NCBI RefSeq assembly: GCF_053078305.1
Contig: NZ_CP166879.1
Direction: 5' to 3' (one strand)
Length of the DNA stretch: 64,000 nt
A program made the translations under genes and the position numbers. Under the pieces are notes generated by a model. The model searched no databases. It was not told the DNA's origin and was given only the letters and a program-made list of their open reading frames with translations. Within the stretch, counting starts at the first letter, position 1. The number at the start of each line of letters is the position of its first letter. Positions 32,738 to 56,146 of the stretch are shown piece after piece.

Positions 32738-33610
32738 TTAACCGTTATTACGTCCGCCAGAACGACGACCGCCGCTCACCTGACTGTGACGTTTCACCGC
32801 ACGACGAATCTGATTCGCCTTCATGCGACGACGGTCTTTTTCTACAGCGACTTTAGAGCTGGTTTCTGGCGGTAGCTCCACCAGTTCGCGCAGATAGTTA
32901 GTCTGGGCGAGGTCCAGCTCCGTCCAGCCACCGCGTGGCAGACCTTTTGGCAGTGGGATATCACCGTAACGAACACGGATCAGGCGGCTCACCTGCACAC
33001 CAACCGCTTCCCACAGACGACGAACTTCACGGTTACGGCCTTCGGTCAGAGTCACGTTGTACCACTGGTTGATCCCTTCGCCGCCGCTGAACTTGATGGT
33101 TTTAAAAGCTGCCGGACCATCTTCCAACTGCACGCCACGACTCAAATCACGCAGTTTCGCGTCGTCAACCTGACCAAATACACGCACGGCATATTCACGT
33201 TCAACTTCACGGCTTGGGTGCATTAAACGGTTTGCCAGTTCACCATCGGTGGTGAACAGCAGCAGACCACAGGTATTAACGTCCAAGCGACCCACGGCAA
33301 TCCAGCGTGCGCCACGCAGTTTTGGCAGACGGTCAAACACCGTTGGACGTCCTTCCGGATCGTTACGGGTACACAACTCACCTTCCGGTTTGTAATAGGC
33401 CAGAACGCGACAAATTTGTTCAGCGGACTCACGTACCGAAATCAGGTGACCATCGATACGGATTTTCAATCCAGGGGTAACTTCAACGCGATCGCCGAGT
33501 TTAGCAATTTTGCCATCAACACTCACACGACCGGCTTCAATAATAGATTCGATTTCACGGCGAGAACCGTGGCCGGCACGCGCCAGCACTTTCTGTAGCT
33601 TTTCGCTCAT
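32738..33610 (-). CDS. rluB: 23S rRNA pseudouridine(2605) synthase RluB
   Basis: 290 aa; S4 domain, RsuA/RluB catalytic motif ([17 protein letters not shown]), arginine/glycine-rich C-tail. Confidence 0.9.
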
Positions 33611-33822: not shown

Positions 33823-34473
33823 TTACCAGCCACCACCGCCTCCGCCACCCGCGCCGCCGCCAGCACCACCACCGGAATAACTTCGCCCCAACAAACTGGT
33901 ATTGGCCCCCAGACTCAGGTGCATCTGTAATGAGAACAAAACGCCACTACGGGCAATTTCCGGGGCGCTAACAGCCGCTGTGAGTGATGGGGTGATACGT
34001 GCTACCCATTCTCTTCCAAGGTTTGCTGAGACTGCCCAACCTGGCAACGCGTAATCCAGTTTCCGTGTTTCCCCTTTCCGCCGCCGCCCACTGTGTGTTG
34101 CCGCCTCTTTACGCGCAAGATAGTTAACGATAGCTTCACCGTGGGCATAACGTTGCTGCCCAGTTTGGGTAAACTTTGGCAGAAAAATATACCCCATACC
34201 AGTGAGATAACCGGTCAGGAAAACAGCGCTAAAATAACCCGCTGGCATATACCAGTAAAAGAATACATCTCCGACATTGATATAGAGAGAATAAAAGGCC
34301 ACGCCTGAACAAATCAGCGGTAAAAACAAAGTGATGATTACACGATTAACGCAAGGCTTGTCATCATCGCGGGCAAACAAAAGCTCAAGGGAGCAAAATA
34401 AAAAAGGAAGAAGCCAGCAGATCATAATAAACATATCGCCCATGTAACCAGGTAAATCATTTGATACCGACAA
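33823..34473 (-). pseudogene. yciQ: 3' remnant of membrane protein gene yciQ, truncated by prophage insertion
   Basis: 216-aa ORF with TM helices and glycine-rich C-tail in the position of yciQ (upstream of rluB in K-12) but far shorter than a full-length gene; its 5' side runs into prophage-end sequence; ORF start is a TTG, not a real start. Confidence 0.5.
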
Positions 34474-34620
34474 GGGTTTTAGTGAAAGGAGGTGAAATCA
34501 CCTGTAAGATACTGAAATAAAACAGGTGATCGATGATTCTGGAGGTTGTTTAGTTTTGATACTGATTAAATAAAATCCGGTATAAAATTAAGGTATCGGC
34601 AACAAATTTGATACTGCACA
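34458..34620. repeat. Putative prophage left-end (attL) transposase-binding sites
   Basis: TTGATAC(C/T)G-like motifs at ~34461, ~34557 and ~34608 plus related copies (agatactga ~34507; inverted gccgatacc ~34592); about 96 and 51 bp apart, similar to my recollection of Mu L1/L2/L3 spacing. Confidence 0.4.
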
Positions 34621-34747
34621 TACTGCTTATGGACGTTTTTAAAAGTACTTAAAATGTCTTTTATGCTAAAAAGTTTATATCAATATCGATCTGGTCACAA
34701 ATCAAGTTGAAAGTGCTCGCTAAGTGCATAGCCTGGGCTTCATGGGG

Positions 34748-35266
34748 TTACGCTTTGGCTTCTTTATGGGTTAAATTGAAATGATGCTCCTTGGTTTCAT
34801 CTCCCTCGAAAATCTCTCTAACCTTTTGATCTGATAAATTATTAAGGCTCAATGCTGCCAGGCGTCGAATACCTGTTAAAGCGATCAACTCTTGATTCTC
34901 TTGATTGCAGAATTCCAGCAATTTTTCTACCCCTTTCCTTCTCAAGGTGTAAATAACTAATTCTTGCTCTTCTTGGCTCAAAGTGTCGATGAGTTCGAGC
35001 AACTCGCTATTGCCACCGTTCTTTTGAGGGGGCTGGTGTTTTATTTCTGCACTACCTGTAATGATGGAAACAACATGTGCAGGTAAGTCGCTTAAACGGT
35101 AGGCAAATGCTCTCCCTCTGATACCAGGTGTAGTTACCGAACGTTTTTCCCATCCTTCATTTTTTGCTCGTTTATGAAGCCCAGCCAGAGATGAAGGAAG
35201 ACCTCCAACCCCCAACAAGTCACTGGCAAGGATCCATTCTTGGTCAAGGATCATATCAAACTCCAT
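34748..35266 (-). CDS. Mu c-type prophage repressor
   Basis: 172 aa, transcribed leftward ~280 bp from the left end; N-terminal motif LPSSLAGLHKRAK shared with the transposase N-terminus (LPSSLAGLHKKAK). Confidence 0.7.
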   Translation of the reverse strand: MEFDMILDQEWILASDLLGVGGLPSSLAGLHKRAKNEGWEKRSVTTPGIRGRAFAYRLSDLPAHVVSIITGSAEIKHQPPQKNGGNSELLELIDTLSQEEQELVIYTLRRKGVEKLLEFCNQENQELIALTGIRRLAALSLNNLSDQKVREIFEGDETKEHHFNLTHKEAKA

Positions 35267-35483
35267 TTGATATTAACTTTTGTTTATATCTTTTATGCGG
35301 TTTATTTCAAAAATAACTCAATAAAAAACAAATAGATACAGAGCAAATTTAAAAATTTGAAATTAACCAGTTGATATTTACTAAGTTAATATCTAACATA
35401 TCAAACATACACTAGTGAGTAACTCAATAGAGTAGCACACATGAGTAATAAAGTTTGCCATAGAAAGTACACAGGGGGCCATT
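35267..35483. promoter_or_regulatory. Early regulatory region (divergent repressor/early promoters and operators)
   Basis: 217-bp AT-rich intergenic region between divergent repressor and ner, with ttgatat-type direct and inverted repeats. Confidence 0.5.
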
Positions 35484-35729
35484 GTGAGTCTTATTGAAGA
35501 TTGGTCTTCCGCCGATATAAAGGCAGCCTTAGAAAAACGCGATACCAATTTGTCACGTTTATCAAGGGAAAATAATTTGCAGCCTAGGACTTTGGGTAAT
35601 GCTTTGCGAGTTCCCTACCCTAAAGGTGAAAAGATAATTGCTAGGGCTATAGGTGTAGAGCCACAGGTTATTTGGCCTACTAGATATGAACGACGTGCGC
35701 GGAGGAAATATGTGGGTTGCAATGACTGA
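35484..35729 (+). CDS. ner: Ner/Nlp-family DNA-binding protein
   Basis: 81 aa; resembles Mu Ner / E. coli Nlp (...LSRLSRENNLQPRTLGNALRVPYPKGEKIIARAIGVEPQVIWPTRY). Confidence 0.75.
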   Translation: MSLIEDWSSADIKAALEKRDTNLSRLSRENNLQPRTLGNALRVPYPKGEKIIARAIGVEPQVIWPTRYERRARRKYVGCND

Positions 35730-37794
35730 ATTGATTTCATTCAGTGACCTACCTAGTTCTTTGGCAGGTCTGCACAAAAAAGCAAAGAGGGAAGCGTGGA
35801 AAACGCGGCTAAAACCAGGGGTAAAAGGGAAAGTTTTAGAGTGTGAAATAGGAGCTTTGCCTTTAACTGTTCAGCAGGCAGTACGCGAACGCCATGCCCT
35901 GCAACTGATGACGCAAAAAGCCGATGAATCACCGGCTCCGGTGGTGACAAAGGCCAGACGCTCACCTGCCGTGGTTGATGCGGTGGAGGCATATCGCGGA
36001 TCACCCCAACTGATGGTCGAACGCCTCAATGCCCTGACTGAAAATCAGCGCCAGGTGGCTGATGCACGAATCGCGATCGTCAGCGAAGTTCTGAAAGTCG
36101 CGCAACAACCTGGTTTCAGCTGTGCGAAGGCTATCCGGTTTATCGTTGACAACCTGGCACGTTCGCAGTTGGACGAGCGCATTGTGGCAATGGTTGAGAC
36201 GGCGAACGCCAAAAAGGGAAACAGCCGCGCGTTAAGTGAAATCACGCTGAAACGCTGGATTGCGGCCTTTAACAAGGCGCAGAACGCCGCTGAACGCCTG
36301 CTTTTACTGGCACCGGGTAAGCGCCAGGAAATAAAAGCCGAAGATATTAACTGGCTGCCCGAATTTCTGGCGCAGTATCGCCAGTCAAACGGCCGACCAA
36401 TGACCGAGGCTTACGAGGATTTTGTCGCTGAATGGCAGCACCGGCACGCCGATGAGCCTTATATGCTCGATATCATGCCGTCTTATGACACCATTCGCCG
36501 CGCAATGAAGAAACTGCCGGAAGTGGTGAAACAAAAAGGCCGGGTGACCGGCAGTGAATACCGCCAGCTTGAGGGATTCACGCGCCGCGACTGGTCAAAA
36601 ATGCCGGTGAATTATGTCTGGATTGGTGACGGTCACGGCATGAAGCTGAAATGCGCACACCCGGTTCACGGTCGGCCATTTGCACCGGAAGTGACCTTTG
36701 TTATCGACGGTGGCACGCGCTTTGTGGTGGGCTGGAGCCTTGACCTGGCTGAAAATGTTTTCGCCGTAGCCGGTGCCATACAGCACGGCATTCGCCATCA
36801 CGGCAAACCGTTTCTGTATTACTCGGATAACGGCTCCGGGGAAACCGCCGACATCCTGGATAAGGAGGTTGTGGGGATACTGCCGCGACTGGGGATTAAT
36901 CACCCGACCGGGATTGCCGGTAATCCGCAGGGACGAGGCATTATCGAACGGCTTAACCGCACATTACCGATGCGCATAGCCCGTAAATACCGCACCTATT
37001 TCGGGAAAGGTGCAGATCGCGAGACGTTACGCAAAACCAACCGCGATTTACGCTCGGCATTTACTGCCCTGCAACAGGGCAAACGGCTGAACGCCCGGCA
37101 GCAGTCAGCGATGCGTGATTTACCGTCCTGGTCTGAACTGATTGATGCCATTCGTGACGGTGTTGAGTGGTACAACAACCGGCCGCACGATGAATTACCG
37201 GTGAAGCCGAACGGCAAGCATTACAGCCCGGCGGAGTTCAGAAAAAAACGCCTGGCGGAAGAGGACACGGAAATTGAATGGCTGTCCGATGTTGAGCTGC
37301 GGGATATGTTCCGGCCGATGGTGGAACGCCCTGTAAGACGCTGTGAAATACGCTGGCTGAATAATATTTACTACGCGCCCGAGCTGCGTGACGAGCATGG
37401 TCGTAAGGTGCTTATCAGCTATGACATTCATGATGCCGAACGAATTACCGTACGTCGCCTGGATGGCAGCGTGATTTGCGAGGCGGTATGGGACGGTAAT
37501 AAACGCGAAGCCTTCCCGGTTAGCGCGGAATACTACAAACAGCAGCAACGCCTTAAAGGCATGCGTAAACGCGCAGAGGAAAAAATCCGTGATGCCGAGG
37601 ATGAGGTTGTCAACGTGCTGGAGCACAAGCCGCAGGAGCCCTGGCTGGAAAACATATACCGCCCTGTGGGTAATACGGTGACCGTTCAGCAACCGGTCGC
37701 TGACGATGAACCTGATGAAGAATACGAGCGTAATTTCCAGCGGGGATTGCAGTTGCTGGAAGCGAAATTAAAAGAAAATGACCCGCTGGCCTGA
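35710..37794 (+). CDS. Mu-type DDE transposase (MuA-like)
   Basis: ORF 35686..37794; N-terminal repressor-like DNA-binding domain; DDE core (WIGDGHG, YYSDNGSGE); start codon ambiguous. Confidence 0.9.
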   Translation: MWVAMTELISFSDLPSSLAGLHKKAKREAWKTRLKPGVKGKVLECEIGALPLTVQQAVRERHALQLMTQKADESPAPVVTKARRSPAVVDAVEAYRGSPQLMVERLNALTENQRQVADARIAIVSEVLKVAQQPGFSCAKAIRFIVDNLARSQLDERIVAMVETANAKKGNSRALSEITLKRWIAAFNKAQNAAERLLLLAPGKRQEIKAEDINWLPEFLAQYRQSNGRPMTEAYEDFVAEWQHRHADEPYMLDIMPSYDTIRRAMKKLPEVVKQKGRVTGSEYRQLEGFTRRDWSKMPVNYVWIGDGHGMKLKCAHPVHGRPFAPEVTFVIDGGTRFVVGWSLDLAENVFAVAGAIQHGIRHHGKPFLYYSDNGSGETADILDKEVVGILPRLGINHPTGIAGNPQGRGIIERLNRTLPMRIARKYRTYFGKGADRETLRKTNRDLRSAFTALQQGKRLNARQQSAMRDLPSWSELIDAIRDGVEWYNNRPHDELPVKPNGKHYSPAEFRKKRLAEEDTEIEWLSDVELRDMFRPMVERPVRRCEIRWLNNIYYAPELRDEHGRKVLISYDIHDAERITVRRLDGSVICEAVWDGNKREAFPVSAEYYKQQQRLKGMRKRAEEKIRDAEDEVVNVLEHKPQEPWLENIYRPVGNTVTVQQPVADDEPDEEYERNFQRGLQLLEAKLKENDPLA

Positions 37795-42929: not shown

Positions 42930-43111
42930 TAAAGAGACTTGTATTTTTCGCAATTTTCGTTCCGGTGTTGGGGGTTGGTTTTATATTTGCGATTACAGGA
43001 AACCTGTCCATGATGCCAGATATTTGGTTCTTTATCAGGATGTCGCTCTTCCTGTTTATTATGAATCTTCTTATCGACATATATATCCGTATTACTGGAA
43101 AACATAAATGA
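42926..43111 (+). CDS. Small hydrophobic membrane protein (2 predicted TM)
   Basis: 61 aa; MIKRLVFFAIFVPVLGVGFIFAITG... and FFIRMSLFLFIMNLLIDIYI; very AT-rich. Confidence 0.45.
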   Translation: MIKRLVFFAIFVPVLGVGFIFAITGNLSMMPDIWFFIRMSLFLFIMNLLIDIYIRITGKHK

Positions 43112-43482
43112 GAAAAATCACGTCCTTGTCAGAGTTACAGGAGATGAATATGAGTATTGAATTAAGATCGTCTTATGAGTATCGCAAATTTCTTATCGCC
43201 GGAGGCATGAAACCGGAAGATGTGGAAAAAATCGTTTCTTTTATGGATAAGGAATGTGACAAGCGGGATGTGTCAGAAATTATTATGGATGACATGATTC
43301 TGGATTCAGTCGTGGCGTTAAGTCCGTTATGGATTGTGCATTCTCTTGCGGAAATTGCCAAAGGCACCGATAAACAGGCAGCTGTTGCTGCCCTTCAGAC
43401 GCTTAATGAAATGCGTATATCTCCACGCCCGACATTAATACAGATGATTTTGTCCAGTATGGAGGATAAAGCAAATGAATAG
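43108..43482 (+). CDS. Hypothetical cytoplasmic protein
   Basis: 124-aa ORF, start overlaps previous stop; possible internal start at MSIELRS. Confidence 0.45.
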   Translation: MRKITSLSELQEMNMSIELRSSYEYRKFLIAGGMKPEDVEKIVSFMDKECDKRDVSEIIMDDMILDSVVALSPLWIVHSLAEIAKGTDKQAAVAALQTLNEMRISPRPTLIQMILSSMEDKANE

Positions 43483-43672: not shown

Positions 43673-43958
43673 TTCGCAGTTGTTCTGGTGTTTATATATC
43701 ACATCGTTTTTCGGTGCATTCGTCATTACACGATGGCTGTGCCGGAAAGTTATCAGTATTTTTCATAAAAAATACCTGATTGGGCTGGCGGCGACTTCTC
43801 TGATTAATGCACTTGCCAGATATCATAAGGGGGAATACTACTCAAGAATAAAAACTGATGATGGTTTTAATATTTTTGTGATTCCTCCGGAGTATCGGGT
43901 TCAGCTCGATCGGGAAAGTAATATCTATCATATCAGCAGGAGTGTTGATACAGCATGA
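43662..43958 (+). CDS. Small membrane protein (N-terminal TM helix)
   Basis: 98 aa; LFWCLYITSFFGAFVITRWL hydrophobic segment. Confidence 0.45.
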   Translation: MDSSSQLFWCLYITSFFGAFVITRWLCRKVISIFHKKYLIGLAATSLINALARYHKGEYYSRIKTDDGFNIFVIPPEYRVQLDRESNIYHISRSVDTA

Positions 43959-47012: not shown

Positions 47013-47594
47013 ATGGACAAGCCGACGCGTGGTCGTGTACGCAAGGTGGATTTGCTCCCCGACAGCATCCGTAAGCCGCTGCTGGAAATGCTGCGTGAAA
47101 AACGTCTGACGCAGGTCCAGATCCGCGAGGAAATCAACCGTCTGATCCGTGAGGCGGGCCTGCCGGAAGAGCAGCAGCTTTCACCGGCGGCCATCAGCCG
47201 GGAAGCCTCCCGTAATGAGCTGATTGCCCGTAACCTGCGTGATTTACGCGAGCAGACAAAAGCCATGATGGCCGAACTGGGGGACAAGCCAACCGGTGAA
47301 ACCACAGCGCTGATTCTGGAAATGTCCCGCGCCCTGATGTACCGCCGCCTGCGTGCCGCGACCGAATCTCTGAACAGCGACAGCGACGTGGATATGCGCC
47401 TCATCAAAGACATCCTCCTGTCAGCACAGCGTGCGGAAAGTGCCGCCGAGCGCAGCATTAAGCGTGAAAAAGAAATCCGGGCCGCATTTGCTGAAGAGAT
47501 GGCAAACGCGGTCACCGACGAGCTGCGCGGCGTGGATGGCATGAGCGAGCAGATAGAATTTCGTATCAGGCAGATGCTGCTGGGTAAAGCGTAG
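47013..47594 (+). CDS. Mu gp27-like protein (putative small terminase / packaging DNA-binding subunit)
   Basis: 193 aa; basic N-terminus with HTH-like segment; directly upstream of terminase large subunit. Confidence 0.55.
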   Translation: MDKPTRGRVRKVDLLPDSIRKPLLEMLREKRLTQVQIREEINRLIREAGLPEEQQLSPAAISREASRNELIARNLRDLREQTKAMMAELGDKPTGETTALILEMSRALMYRRLRAATESLNSDSDVDMRLIKDILLSAQRAESAAERSIKREKEIRAAFAEEMANAVTDELRGVDGMSEQIEFRIRQMLLGKA

Positions 47595-47604
47595 GAGGTG
47601 AATC

Positions 47605-47853
47605 ATGGCAACAGATAACCGCTCACTGATGATCTGTGCCCATCAGAAGGCATTCAGTCTTGCAACACAGTTACCTCCTGAAACCATAAAAGTGTGTCGT
47701 GAGTTGACTGAACTCTGCATTGCCGGGGAAATCTCCCTGAAACAACTGCATTCGCTGCTGGCAGAGGCTGTCACTGATGAATTGAGCAGCGTGGACGTGA
47801 TGACTGAAGAGCTTGAGTCCCGAATCAGGGGCATTCTGACAGGTAAAGCATGA
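47605..47853 (+). CDS. Hypothetical protein with C-terminus paralogous to the preceding gene
   Basis: 82 aa; C-terminal AVTDELSSVDVMTEELESRIRGILTGKA matches C-terminus of 47013..47594 (AVTDELRGVDGMSEQIEFRIRQMLLGKA). Confidence 0.45.
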   Translation: MATDNRSLMICAHQKAFSLATQLPPETIKVCRELTELCIAGEISLKQLHSLLAEAVTDELSSVDVMTEELESRIRGILTGKA

Positions 47854-53183: not shown

Positions 53184-54308
53184 ATGAAGACGAAAAACAC
53201 GCCCAAACTTGCTTATGCCATTCTGAATGCCATCAGCCTGTCCGCAGACGGGGACGGTGACTGGTGTCAGATCATGCCAGCCGGTCGGGTAAAGGCCCGT
53301 GACGGTCGCCCGGAAAAACCGGCTGAAGGCTGGCTGATTAACCGTGCGACCGTTGAGCGCATGGTATCCCGGGTTGTGGCGCTCAATCAGCCGGTAAAAA
53401 TTGACTACAACCACCAGACCCTGATTAAGGGGCATCAGGCACCGGCTGCCGGTTTTGTGATGGCCTCACCGGAGAATTTTCGCTTCAGTGAAGAGCGTGG
53501 CTTCGAGGTGCGCCCGAAGTGGAATCCTCCGGCCCTTGAACATCTGCGTAATAACGAATTCCCCTGGTTTTCACCGGTGATTGGCTATGACGAGAGCACC
53601 GGCGAACCTGTCGAACTTCGGATGCTGGCTATTACCGGTGACCCCGGTCTGACCGGCATGAATCCTGTCGCCGCGCTGTCGGCGGATGACCTTTATAACG
53701 CCTTAAACCCTCCTTTAAAGGATACCTCCATGAATGAGCAATTACGCCAGTTGCTGACGGCGCTCGGTCTGACCGTGGCTGACGGTGACGAATTTACGCC
53801 GGAGCTGGGCACGGCAGCGCTGTCTGCCCTCACCGGGATCAAAACCCGTGCGGATGCACACGACAACCTGAAAACACAGGTTGCCAGCCTGTCGGCAGAG
53901 CTGGAAACCGCAAAAGGCACACCGGCTGGCGGCAGTATTGATCTGACGAAATACGTGCCTGTTGAAACGTATAACGCCCTGCGTACCGAATACGTTGCGC
54001 TGTCGGCGCAGCACGGCAGCACCACGCTGGAGCAGGTGCTGGACAAGGCTGAATCCGAAGGGCGCATCTTCAAAAGCGAACGCGGCTATCTGGAACAACT
54101 GGGCGGGCAGATTGGCGTGGCGGCACTTTCTGCACAGCTTGACGCCCGCCAGCCGGTTGCGGCCCTGACCGGCCTTCAGACCGACACCGTGACCGTGCCG
54201 GATAAAAAGACTGCCACCGCTGTGCTGTCGGCTGAAGATATCGCGGCCGCCAAACTGCTGGGTAAAACCGAAGCCGAGTTCCTGAAAATGAAAGAGGAAA
54301 TGCAATAA
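53184..54308 (+). CDS. Prohead protease/scaffold protein (Mu I / gp32-like)
   Basis: 374 aa; N-terminal protease-like domain, C-terminal alanine-rich helical scaffold-like region; directly precedes major capsid gene. Confidence 0.7.
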   Translation: MKTKNTPKLAYAILNAISLSADGDGDWCQIMPAGRVKARDGRPEKPAEGWLINRATVERMVSRVVALNQPVKIDYNHQTLIKGHQAPAAGFVMASPENFRFSEERGFEVRPKWNPPALEHLRNNEFPWFSPVIGYDESTGEPVELRMLAITGDPGLTGMNPVAALSADDLYNALNPPLKDTSMNEQLRQLLTALGLTVADGDEFTPELGTAALSALTGIKTRADAHDNLKTQVASLSAELETAKGTPAGGSIDLTKYVPVETYNALRTEYVALSAQHGSTTLEQVLDKAESEGRIFKSERGYLEQLGGQIGVAALSAQLDARQPVAALTGLQTDTVTVPDKKTATAVLSAEDIAAAKLLGKTEAEFLKMKEEMQ

Positions 54309-55255
54309 TGCCTACCCCGATTACACCGGCGATGATCACCGCCCTGATGACGGGCTACCGTTCTGATTTTCAGGCCGGGATGTCCATGGCCCCGTCGCAG
54401 TACAAAAAAATTGCGATGACCGTGCCCTCCACATCGAAATCCAACACCTACGGCTGGCTGGGGCATGCGCCTCATTTTCGTGAGTGGATTGGTTCTCGTG
54501 TGATCCAGAAAATGAAAGCGCACGGTTATTCCATTGTAAACAAGACCTGGGAAGATACCGTCCCTGTTAATCGTGATGATTTTGAGGACGATAATCTCGG
54601 TATTTACTCGCCTTTATTTCAGGAGCTTGGTCGTGCCGCTGCTGTTCAGCCGGATGAGCTTGTATTTGCTGCTCTGCGTGATGGTCTGAAAAGTGCGTGT
54701 TACGACGGTCAGAACTTCTTTGATACCGAACACCCCGTCTACCCAAATGTGGATGGTACCGGTGATGTGGCGCTGGTCAGCAACATGTTTGTGGCAAAAA
54801 CCGGCTCTGTCGGTGCACAGGCAGATTACAGCGGACCGGCCTGGTATCTGCTCGACTGCTCCCGTGCAATAAAACCCATCATCTATCAGAGCCGCCGCAA
54901 GGTTGAACTGGTTGCACAGACAAAAATTGATGAAGGTCGCGCATTCACTGATAACGAGTTTGTGTTCGGTGCATCCGTTCGTCACAACGTGGGCTACGGC
55001 TTCTGGCAGATGGCCTACATGATGCAGTCACCGCTGACGCTGGATGCGCTGTGGCATGGCTGGTCCGCCATGCGTGAGTTTACCGCTGACGGTGGCCGCA
55101 AACTCGGCATCAAACCCACCCATATTGTTGTCCCCACCTCGCTGGAAAAACAGGCGGTGCAGCTGCTGGAGCGTGAACTGTTCGCAGACGGAAACGCAAC
55201 CGTCTCTAACGAGATGAAGGGCAAGCTGGAGCTGGTTGTCGCGGATTATCTGTAA
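54308..55255 (+). CDS. Major capsid protein (Mu T / gp34-like)
   Basis: 315 aa; start overlaps scaffold stop. Confidence 0.8.
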   Translation: MPTPITPAMITALMTGYRSDFQAGMSMAPSQYKKIAMTVPSTSKSNTYGWLGHAPHFREWIGSRVIQKMKAHGYSIVNKTWEDTVPVNRDDFEDDNLGIYSPLFQELGRAAAVQPDELVFAALRDGLKSACYDGQNFFDTEHPVYPNVDGTGDVALVSNMFVAKTGSVGAQADYSGPAWYLLDCSRAIKPIIYQSRRKVELVAQTKIDEGRAFTDNEFVFGASVRHNVGYGFWQMAYMMQSPLTLDALWHGWSAMREFTADGGRKLGIKPTHIVVPTSLEKQAVQLLERELFADGNATVSNEMKGKLELVVADYL

Positions 55256-55298: not shown

Positions 55299-55730
55299 AT
55301 GAATGAACATCACACTGTGGCAGCAACAGATGATTCAGGTCTTCAGATCAGTGGTGACAATTCTGTCACGGTGCTGGCAGAAGTGCGTTGCAGTCGTTCG
55401 GCGTTTCGTCGTGCGGGGTTCCTGTTCACGCGTGGACGTCAGCAGGTTGAGGTCACCCCGGAGCAGCTTGCCCGACTGGAGGCGGAGCCATGCCTCACTG
55501 TGCGAATACTACAGACGTCTGCTGATGATGCGGGGAGCGTGGCGGGTGTGGTTCATGCAGTGGCCTGTACAGATTTAGCCGAAGCCGAAGCCGAAGCCGA
55601 AGCCGAAGCCGAAGCCGAAGCCGAAGCCGAAGCCGAAGCCGAAGCCGAAGCCGAAGCCGAAGCCGGACAGGATGCTCCCCGGAAAAAGACCGGTAACAAA
55701 GCGAAACAGGCGAAAAAGGCCCGCGCATGA
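55299..55730 (+). CDS. Head-region protein with (Ala-Glu)14 low-complexity tract
   Basis: 143 aa; contains AEAEAE...(x14) encoded by a perfect GCCGAA repeat; basic lysine-rich C-terminus. Confidence 0.5.
   Translation: MNEHHTVAATDDSGLQISGDNSVTVLAEVRCSRSAFRRAGFLFTRGRQQVEVTPEQLARLEAEPCLTVRILQTSADDAGSVAGVVHAVACTDLAEAEAEAEAEAEAEAEAEAEAEAEAEAEAGQDAPRKKTGNKAKQAKKARA
55578..55661 (+). repeat. Perfect hexanucleotide tandem repeat (GCCGAA) x ~14
   Basis: Read directly from sequence; in-frame inside CDS 55299..55730; coordinates +/- a few bp. Confidence 0.9.
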
Positions 55731-56146
55731 ATTACGCCACTGAAACCGATATGCGGGCGCGTTACCGCGAGGATTTGCTCAGGCCGTTACTGGCTGTGCC
55801 CCGTTCGGATGAGCCGGACACGCGCAAGCTGAACCGGGCGCTGACAGATGCGTCAGCCCTTATCGACAGCTATCTGTCCGCCCGTTACACGCTGCCGCTG
55901 GAGGTTATTCCGGCCGTTCTTGTTCAGCACTGTTGCGCGATTGCCTTTTATTACCTGTGCGATCAGCGAGCCTCCGATCAGGCGCGTGACCGTTACCGTG
56001 AAGCGCTGGCCTGGCTGAAAGATGTCATGAACGGCAATGTGCCGGTCGGTGTGGATACGAACGGTGCGGCCCCTGAATCCGGGGATTTACCACAGGTTCT
56101 GTCTGATGCAGCGGTATTCGGGCGCAACCAGAAGGGCTTCATATGA
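55727..56146 (+). CDS. Head-tail connector/completion protein (Mu gp36-like)
   Basis: 139 aa; position between capsid and sheath genes. Confidence 0.55.
   Translation: MNYATETDMRARYREDLLRPLLAVPRSDEPDTRKLNRALTDASALIDSYLSARYTLPLEVIPAVLVQHCCAIAFYYLCDQRASDQARDRYREALAWLKDVMNGNVPVGVDTNGAAPESGDLPQVLSDAAVFGRNQKGFI

Follow-up and report, generated by a model that had tools for sequence, protein, structure and literature searches.

We examined a hexanucleotide repeat in a gene of a Mu-like prophage carried on contig NZ_CP166879.1 (assembly GCF_053078305.1), using a stretch of 64,000 nucleotides that is referred to here in its entirety as the window. The repeat consists of 14 perfect copies of GCCGAA on the plus strand and encodes an in-frame (Ala-Glu)14 tract at residues 94-121 of a 143-residue open reading frame (ORF), designated here the repeat gene and, for its product, the repeat protein. 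An earlier note made from the letters of the window had described this array, and both a direct reading of the sequence and Tandem Repeats Finder (period 6 at 55577-55665, 14.8 copies, 100% matches, score 178) reproduce it. The array is far beyond chance expectation and is the only tandem array of more than three copies that Tandem Repeats Finder detects in the 64 kb window. The word "unusual" in the earlier note is nevertheless relative, since in-frame six-base variable-number tandem repeats (VNTRs) are a familiar feature of Escherichia coli O157 genomes. The features of the gene are as follows.

55299..55730, plus strand: the repeat gene, of the Mu gp35 / HI1506 family, 143 amino acids, homologue of ECs_4975 of prophage Sp18
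55371..55514, plus strand: predicted folded domain, residues ~25-72 (beta-hairpin, helix, strand), with the FluMu_N domain and EQLARLEAEPCLTV within it
55577..55665, plus strand: whole six-nucleotide periodicity, the pattern being extended by a flanking A and GCCG
55578..55661, plus strand: GCCGAA hexanucleotide array, perfect, 14 units, encoding (Ala-Glu)14
55662..55727, plus strand: C-terminal tail A-GQDAPRKKTGNKAKQAKKARA, in which the 21 residues past the Ala have a net charge of ~+7
55701..55720, plus strand: second tandem repeat of the same gene, in the tail region, with a 9-nucleotide unit GCGAAACAG/GCGAAAAAG
55727..55730, plus strand: ATGA overlap, in which the stop of the 143-residue gene shares bases with the gp36 start
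55495..55728, minus strand: (RL)n shadow ORF opposite the repeat gene, not a gene

A further ORF, with an (SA)n tract, lies at 55553..55699 on the minus strand. We rejected both the (RL)n and the (SA)n frames as genes and regard them as shadows of the plus-strand ORF, because the latter has a Pfam domain and a conserved gene order; the RL-repeat frame had already been called artefactual.

The principal property of the array is its variability among related prophages. Of 5426 complete E. coli genomes, 227 carry the repeat gene (228 records, 263 places), with 2-4 prophage copies in some of them, and exact counting was done on representatives fetched from every length class. Among 29 gene copies the unit number was 1, 2, 3, 5, 6, 7, 8, 9, 11, 12, 13, 14, 15, 16, 17 or 20, with the tract perfect in nearly every copy and with flanks that are 97-100% identical among copies differing in unit number. 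The ORF was in frame and intact in all 29, with the same stop and the same overlap with gp36; the unit being six nucleotides long, neither the frame nor the ATGA junction is disturbed by a change in copy number. A phase-variable contingency locus of the ON/OFF type was considered and rejected on the same grounds, that is, the six-nucleotide unit and the in-frame state of every counted allele. The proposal that tract length could vary in frame between isolates is thus realized, and the identity of copy number across related prophages that might have argued against hypervariability is not observed.

A wider survey was based on the lengths of matching spans in 57 evenly spaced records of the 228. 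Every value from 1 to 17 units was seen except 2, and each match length equalled n x 6 nucleotides plus one separate 9-nucleotide indel. The distribution is broad and nearly flat over 3-17 units, with a distinct class of 1-unit alleles (9 of the 57 records), and the locus has at least 18 alleles. Both lineages defined by the 9-nucleotide indel cover wide ranges of unit number, and length changes are therefore recurrent. The indel corresponds to the second tandem repeat, which is present or absent by prophage lineage (tail KQAKKARA versus KQARA/EQARA) and lies just upstream of the gp36 start, where it might alter the gp36 ribosome-binding region. The repeat gene is also carried by Mu-like phages inserted in two records of Shiga toxin-converting phages, LC727895.1 (26891-27298) and LC727881.1 (53808-54197), with ~10 and ~7 units respectively by span length.

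Recent change can be seen within a single clone. Three cattle isolates (113, 118 and 121) are free of mismatches over ~48.7 kb comprising the whole prophage and host flanks, and differ by one gap of 6 or 12 nucleotides; the exact counts are 14, 15 and 13 units respectively, and isolates 113 and 118 first diverge where the tract ends. By span length, the 14-unit allele recurs in assemblies of six isolates of this clone and the 13-unit allele in those of three. The tract consequently changes faster than point substitutions accumulate, with 13, 14 and 15 units set against no substitution in ~48.7 kb.

Sequence comparison places the repeat protein in the Mu gp35 / HI1506 family. Pfam FluMu_N (PF17891) matches residues 36-72 with 37.1 bits (cut-off 25.8, E 2.6e-9), the N-domain matches the nuclear magnetic resonance (NMR) structure of Haemophilus HI1506 (2OUT) at E 1e-4, or 4.5e-11 with a profile, and the product of Mu gene 35 is 48.8% identical over residues 23-63. 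The gene also occupies the position typical of this family, with the major head gene on one side and the gp36 adaptor gene on the other, and the order of the module is virion morphogenesis protein, Mu protease I, gpT, repeat gene, gp36, gp37, DUF2635 and tail sheath. This placement bears out the description of the product as a head-module protein. The immediate neighbors are listed below.

53184-54308: Mu-like protease I, upstream of gpT
54308..55255, plus strand: Mu-like major head subunit gpT, upstream neighbor of the repeat gene
55727..56146, plus strand: Mu gp36-family head-tail adaptor, downstream neighbor of the repeat gene

Distant relatives are composed of the N-domain, a short variable low-complexity linker and a three-helix C-domain. 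HI1506 is reported to have an unstructured linker of roughly 30 residues past its N-domain. The repeat protein keeps the N-domain and the linker, and has a 21-residue basic tail in place of the C-domain; the C-domain motif NPxHFTxxGxPKVxAV..LG is absent from it, with only 22 residues present past the tract. In this respect the Sp18-type protein is a member of the family whose architecture is truncated or variant. Few relatives outside E. coli were recovered, either by word-indexed or by exhaustive protein searches, and for this reason the family alignment is shallow (12-15 sequences). An AlphaFold (AF2) model built with a 15-sequence alignment has a predicted local distance difference test score (pLDDT) of 83-92 over residues ~23-72, as a beta-hairpin, a helix and a third strand, and a pLDDT below 50 from residue 78 on (78-117), the repeat site included. 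A helix given to the AE tract by a single-sequence AF2 model (pLDDT 56) was discarded as not trustworthy. The ratio of nonsynonymous to synonymous polymorphism (pN/pS) between the two main E. coli lineages is ~0.45 in the folded core versus ~1.1-1.2 outside it, on small counts that represent essentially one split, and over the 93 codons preceding the repeat it is 0.6-0.9 overall. The repeat region is accordingly predicted to be disordered and nearly neutral in its evolution. The suggestion of the earlier note that the tract serves as a spacer agrees with its place past the only confidently folded domain, with the modelled disorder, with a pN/pS of ~1 and with the variable linker of the relatives. 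The basic tail and the gp36 junction are conserved across lineages that are ~10% divergent in DNA, and the net charge of the subunit goes from ~+2 at 1 unit to ~-17 at 20 units.

Taken together, we consider the GCCGAA tract to be a hypermutable in-frame VNTR in a tolerated tether following a folded domain, and assign a probability of about 70% to this as the best reading overall. Units would be gained and lost through slipped-strand mispairing during replication. DNA secondary structure was sought in the tract and none was found, both strands folding less stably than all 200 shuffled sequences (z +2.9 and +3.2); instability driven by hairpins was therefore rejected, and plain slipped-strand mispairing is the probable mechanism. 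The 1-unit alleles read LAEAGQD (GCCGAAGCCGGA) and Mu gp35 has LAEAGG where the repeat protein has LAEAG. The 1-unit GCCGAA-GCCGGA sequence is likely the proto-repeat out of which the array would have grown and which some prophages would still keep. At the protein level, (Ala-Glu)n would form a polyanionic tether of 2-40 residues joining the folded domain to the short basic tail. This tether may hang off the head surface, where its length would be uncritical, all lengths would be tolerated and the locus would drift. Since 1-unit alleles are common, the expanded tract is dispensable, and neutral drift of tract length appears to be the most economical reading.

Insight into the location of the protein comes from the Mu-like Pseudomonas phage JBD30. 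The family profile matches chain B of PDB entries 8RKC/8RQE at E 1.5e-4 in hmmsearch (427 chains, two entries), and chain B of 8RKC is gp39 of JBD30. Comparison with hhalign gave a probability of 93.4% and E 2.4e-7 over 41 columns, with the QLxxLExDPxLxV motif of gp39 aligned with EQLARLEAEPCLTV of the repeat protein. The gp39 residues that contact the capsid (E91, S95, D96 and K100) fall within this motif, and the order protease/scaffold, major capsid, decoration or repeat gene and adaptor is common to JBD30 and the window. In JBD30, gp39 binds the T=7 head as a minor capsid protein, with trimers located on its 3-fold and quasi-3-fold axes; its fold is a Soc-like beta-tadpole, it is present on only ~5/12 particles and it was judged dispensable (PMC11445458). 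By sequence, the folded domain of the repeat protein appears remotely homologous to the capsid-binding domain of gp39. For the repeat protein itself to act as a capsid decoration protein we would give roughly even odds, and several points weigh against that role: Pfam FluMu_N scores the JBD30 fragment at 23.7 bits, just under its cut-off of 25.8, the GenBank record of Mu labels Mu_35 a "head-to-tail connector complex protein" with a citation of PMID 29767456, and no decoration or cement density was seen on the phage Mu capsid.

The same Mu label and the same bare Mu capsid favor a different location, in which the repeat protein would be an accessory component of the neck or connector and (Ala-Glu)n a spacer in or beside the head-tail joint; the translational coupling of the repeat gene to the adaptor gene gp36 points in this direction as well. 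However, the Mu connector at 3.4-3.6 Å comprises gp29, gp36 and gp37 only, without gp35, and the sole family member that has been located in a virion, JBD30 gp39, sits on the capsid surface. Tight packing in a neck is also unlikely to accept 2-40 extra acidic residues, and we regard this location as unlikely.

Whether tract length is selected rather than drifting can be argued from much of the same evidence. In an adaptive interpretation the VNTR would be a phage contingency locus whose length is selected for a property of the virion, candidates being surface charge, colloidal behavior, adhesion to mucus or surfaces and the reach of the basic tail. A mutation rate that is very high relative to substitutions, a broad and nearly flat allele spectrum over 3-17 units, the purity of the tract in most alleles and charge swings of +2 to -17 per subunit would all suit such tuning, as would the decoration of 3-fold and quasi-3-fold capsid axes by the homologous JBD30 protein and the occurrence of (AE)n tracts in unrelated phage proteins, one of them followed by a basic tail. 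Neutral stepwise mutation gives a flat spectrum too, however, and the frequency of 1-unit alleles marks the tract as dispensable, as the homologous decoration protein itself was judged to be. No phenotype is known for the tract and Mu has no capsid decoration, and selection on length is in our view quite unlikely. The most specific form of this idea, in which the VNTR stochastically resets the length and charge of a polyanionic capsid bristle present in up to ~420 copies and so varies charge, stability and adhesion, has only a slim chance of being correct.

The opposite possibility is that the gene is a decaying and functionless prophage remnant in which the repeat varies for want of constraint. 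The pN/pS of 0.6-0.9 over the pre-repeat codons and the loss of the family C-domain are compatible with decay, and in at least one related prophage, that of NZ_CP075697.1 (strain STEC2018-607), gp36 is a pseudogene with an internal stop (786-1205), from which it follows that some copies of the related prophage are decaying. Yet no counted copy of the repeat gene has lost its ORF, the folded core retains a pN/pS of ~0.45 against ~1.2 in its flanks, the tail and the gp36 junction have been preserved between divergent lineages, and the 49-kb prophage around it carries a full complement of genes, all of which makes decay highly unlikely. Many database entries for the repeat protein and its family are "partial", stopping at approximately residues 92-103 where the repeat starts, and short-read assemblies therefore break there; that errors in sequencing or assembling a low-complexity tract account for the copy-number differences is nevertheless barely credible, as the differences occur in complete, closed genomes and always as whole perfect units, an 84-nucleotide tract is well within long-read length, and the recurrence of the same alleles in several independent assemblies of one clone makes assembly error unlikely.

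The wider setting of the locus is a chromosomal insertion. Positions 1 to ~34442 of the window are E. coli chromosome (the acnA-topA-pdeR-rnb region) with 99.6% identity to complete E. coli genomes, and the Mu-like prophage starts at ~34443 and extends beyond the window end. The same locus is found in E. coli O157:H7 Sakai as ECs_4975 of prophage Sp18. The left end of the prophage falls within an ORF at 33823-34473 on the minus strand, adjoining rluB (32738-33610), which has a Gly-rich C-terminus (GGGAGGGAGGGGGGGW) and Tandem Repeats Finder arrays at 33829-33873. This ORF, which we take to be yciQ, appears to have been interrupted and truncated by insertion of the prophage. Compared with the prophage of cattle isolate 113, the segments 34531-35871, 42933-43136, 43771-43947 and 47591-47758 are unmatched, including the repressor-proximal region at the left end, and the remainder is 97-99% identical. 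The prophage in the window is a mosaic relative of Sp18.

In practice, the locus is a highly discriminating length marker, with at least 18 alleles and changes inside a clone that shows no single-nucleotide polymorphisms over 49 kb, applicable to Shiga-toxin-producing and other E. coli with Sp18-type Mu-like prophages. The long-uncharacterised Mu gp35 / HI1506 family is linked to the capsid decoration protein of JBD30. The region past the folded domain takes 2-40 extra acidic residues and would be naturally tolerant of insertions, which might be exploited for display, for instance. The locus also provides a test case for asking if simple-sequence repeats are a means by which phages vary the surface properties of their capsids. 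If the arrangement of JBD30 holds, up to ~420 copies of the tether would be present per T=7 head, and if the tract does act as a capsid bristle, the result would be heritable and rapidly reversible variation of the capsid surface rather than of the receptor-binding protein.

The GCCGAA locus is a repeat of a well-understood type and involves no new mechanism. Typing of E. coli O157:H7 by multiple-locus VNTR analysis (MLVA) makes use of in-frame VNTR loci with a 6-bp unit, and these are likewise perfect hexanucleotides in coding sequence that change stepwise, differ between near-clonal isolates and belong to the same group of organisms. In contrast to those loci, the GCCGAA array sits in a Mu-like prophage that only a fraction of the complete E. 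coli genomes carry (227 of 5426), and therefore it cannot be a universal typing marker. No paper naming the locus or ECs4975 was found, in a searched literature that mostly did not include the classic MLVA papers.

At the protein level, the Ser-Asp repeat region of Staphylococcus aureus ClfA is the dipeptide-repeat stalk of a surface protein. It is likewise encoded by short DNA repeats, varies in length among strains and forms a spacer between domain and anchor; ClfA is, however, a bacterial cell-wall protein in which a minimum length is functionally required, whereas 1-unit alleles of the phage tract are common. Mu gp35 and HI1506 (2OUT) have the same Pfam N-domain and the same gene position as the repeat protein, but end in the three-helix C-domain, whereas the Sp18-type protein ends in its 21-residue basic tail and its linker has turned into a VNTR. 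JBD30 gp39, like the repeat protein, is encoded in a Mu-like phage directly past the gene of the major capsid protein, shares the small domain with RAGF and QLxxLExDPxLxV motifs and has a disordered arm outside that domain. Unlike the repeat protein, gp39 has its folded domain at the C-terminus and its arm at the N-terminus, with neither an (AE)n tract nor a basic tail, and the likeness is one of remote sequence homology (E 1.5e-4) for which a fold match could not be confirmed.

Many unrelated phage proteins also contain (AE)n tracts whose coding unit is GCCGAA. At least 120 IMG/VR viral contigs contain arrays of four or more GCCGAA units; in 55 of these contigs the longest ORF reads the array as Ala-Glu, and only six represent the repeat gene. 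An unrelated viral protein (IMGVR_UViG_3300033067_001865, positions 34-81) ends in (AE)8 followed by the basic tail PAKKKRGRPA, and this layout of an acidic tract with a basic tail is common to it and to the protein in the window. Outside phages, Neisseria has in-frame hexanucleotide repeats in lbpB (AAGCTG) and pigA (GAAGCC) (PMC7371114). The pigA unit is a rotation of GCCGAA, and we considered and rejected the possibility that it represents this locus within a Mu-like prophage of Neisseria, as it lies in pigA. The resemblance of the units is coincidental, the Neisseria repeats being in unrelated host genes and not in a prophage, but in both systems slippage alters the length of the protein without switching the gene off.
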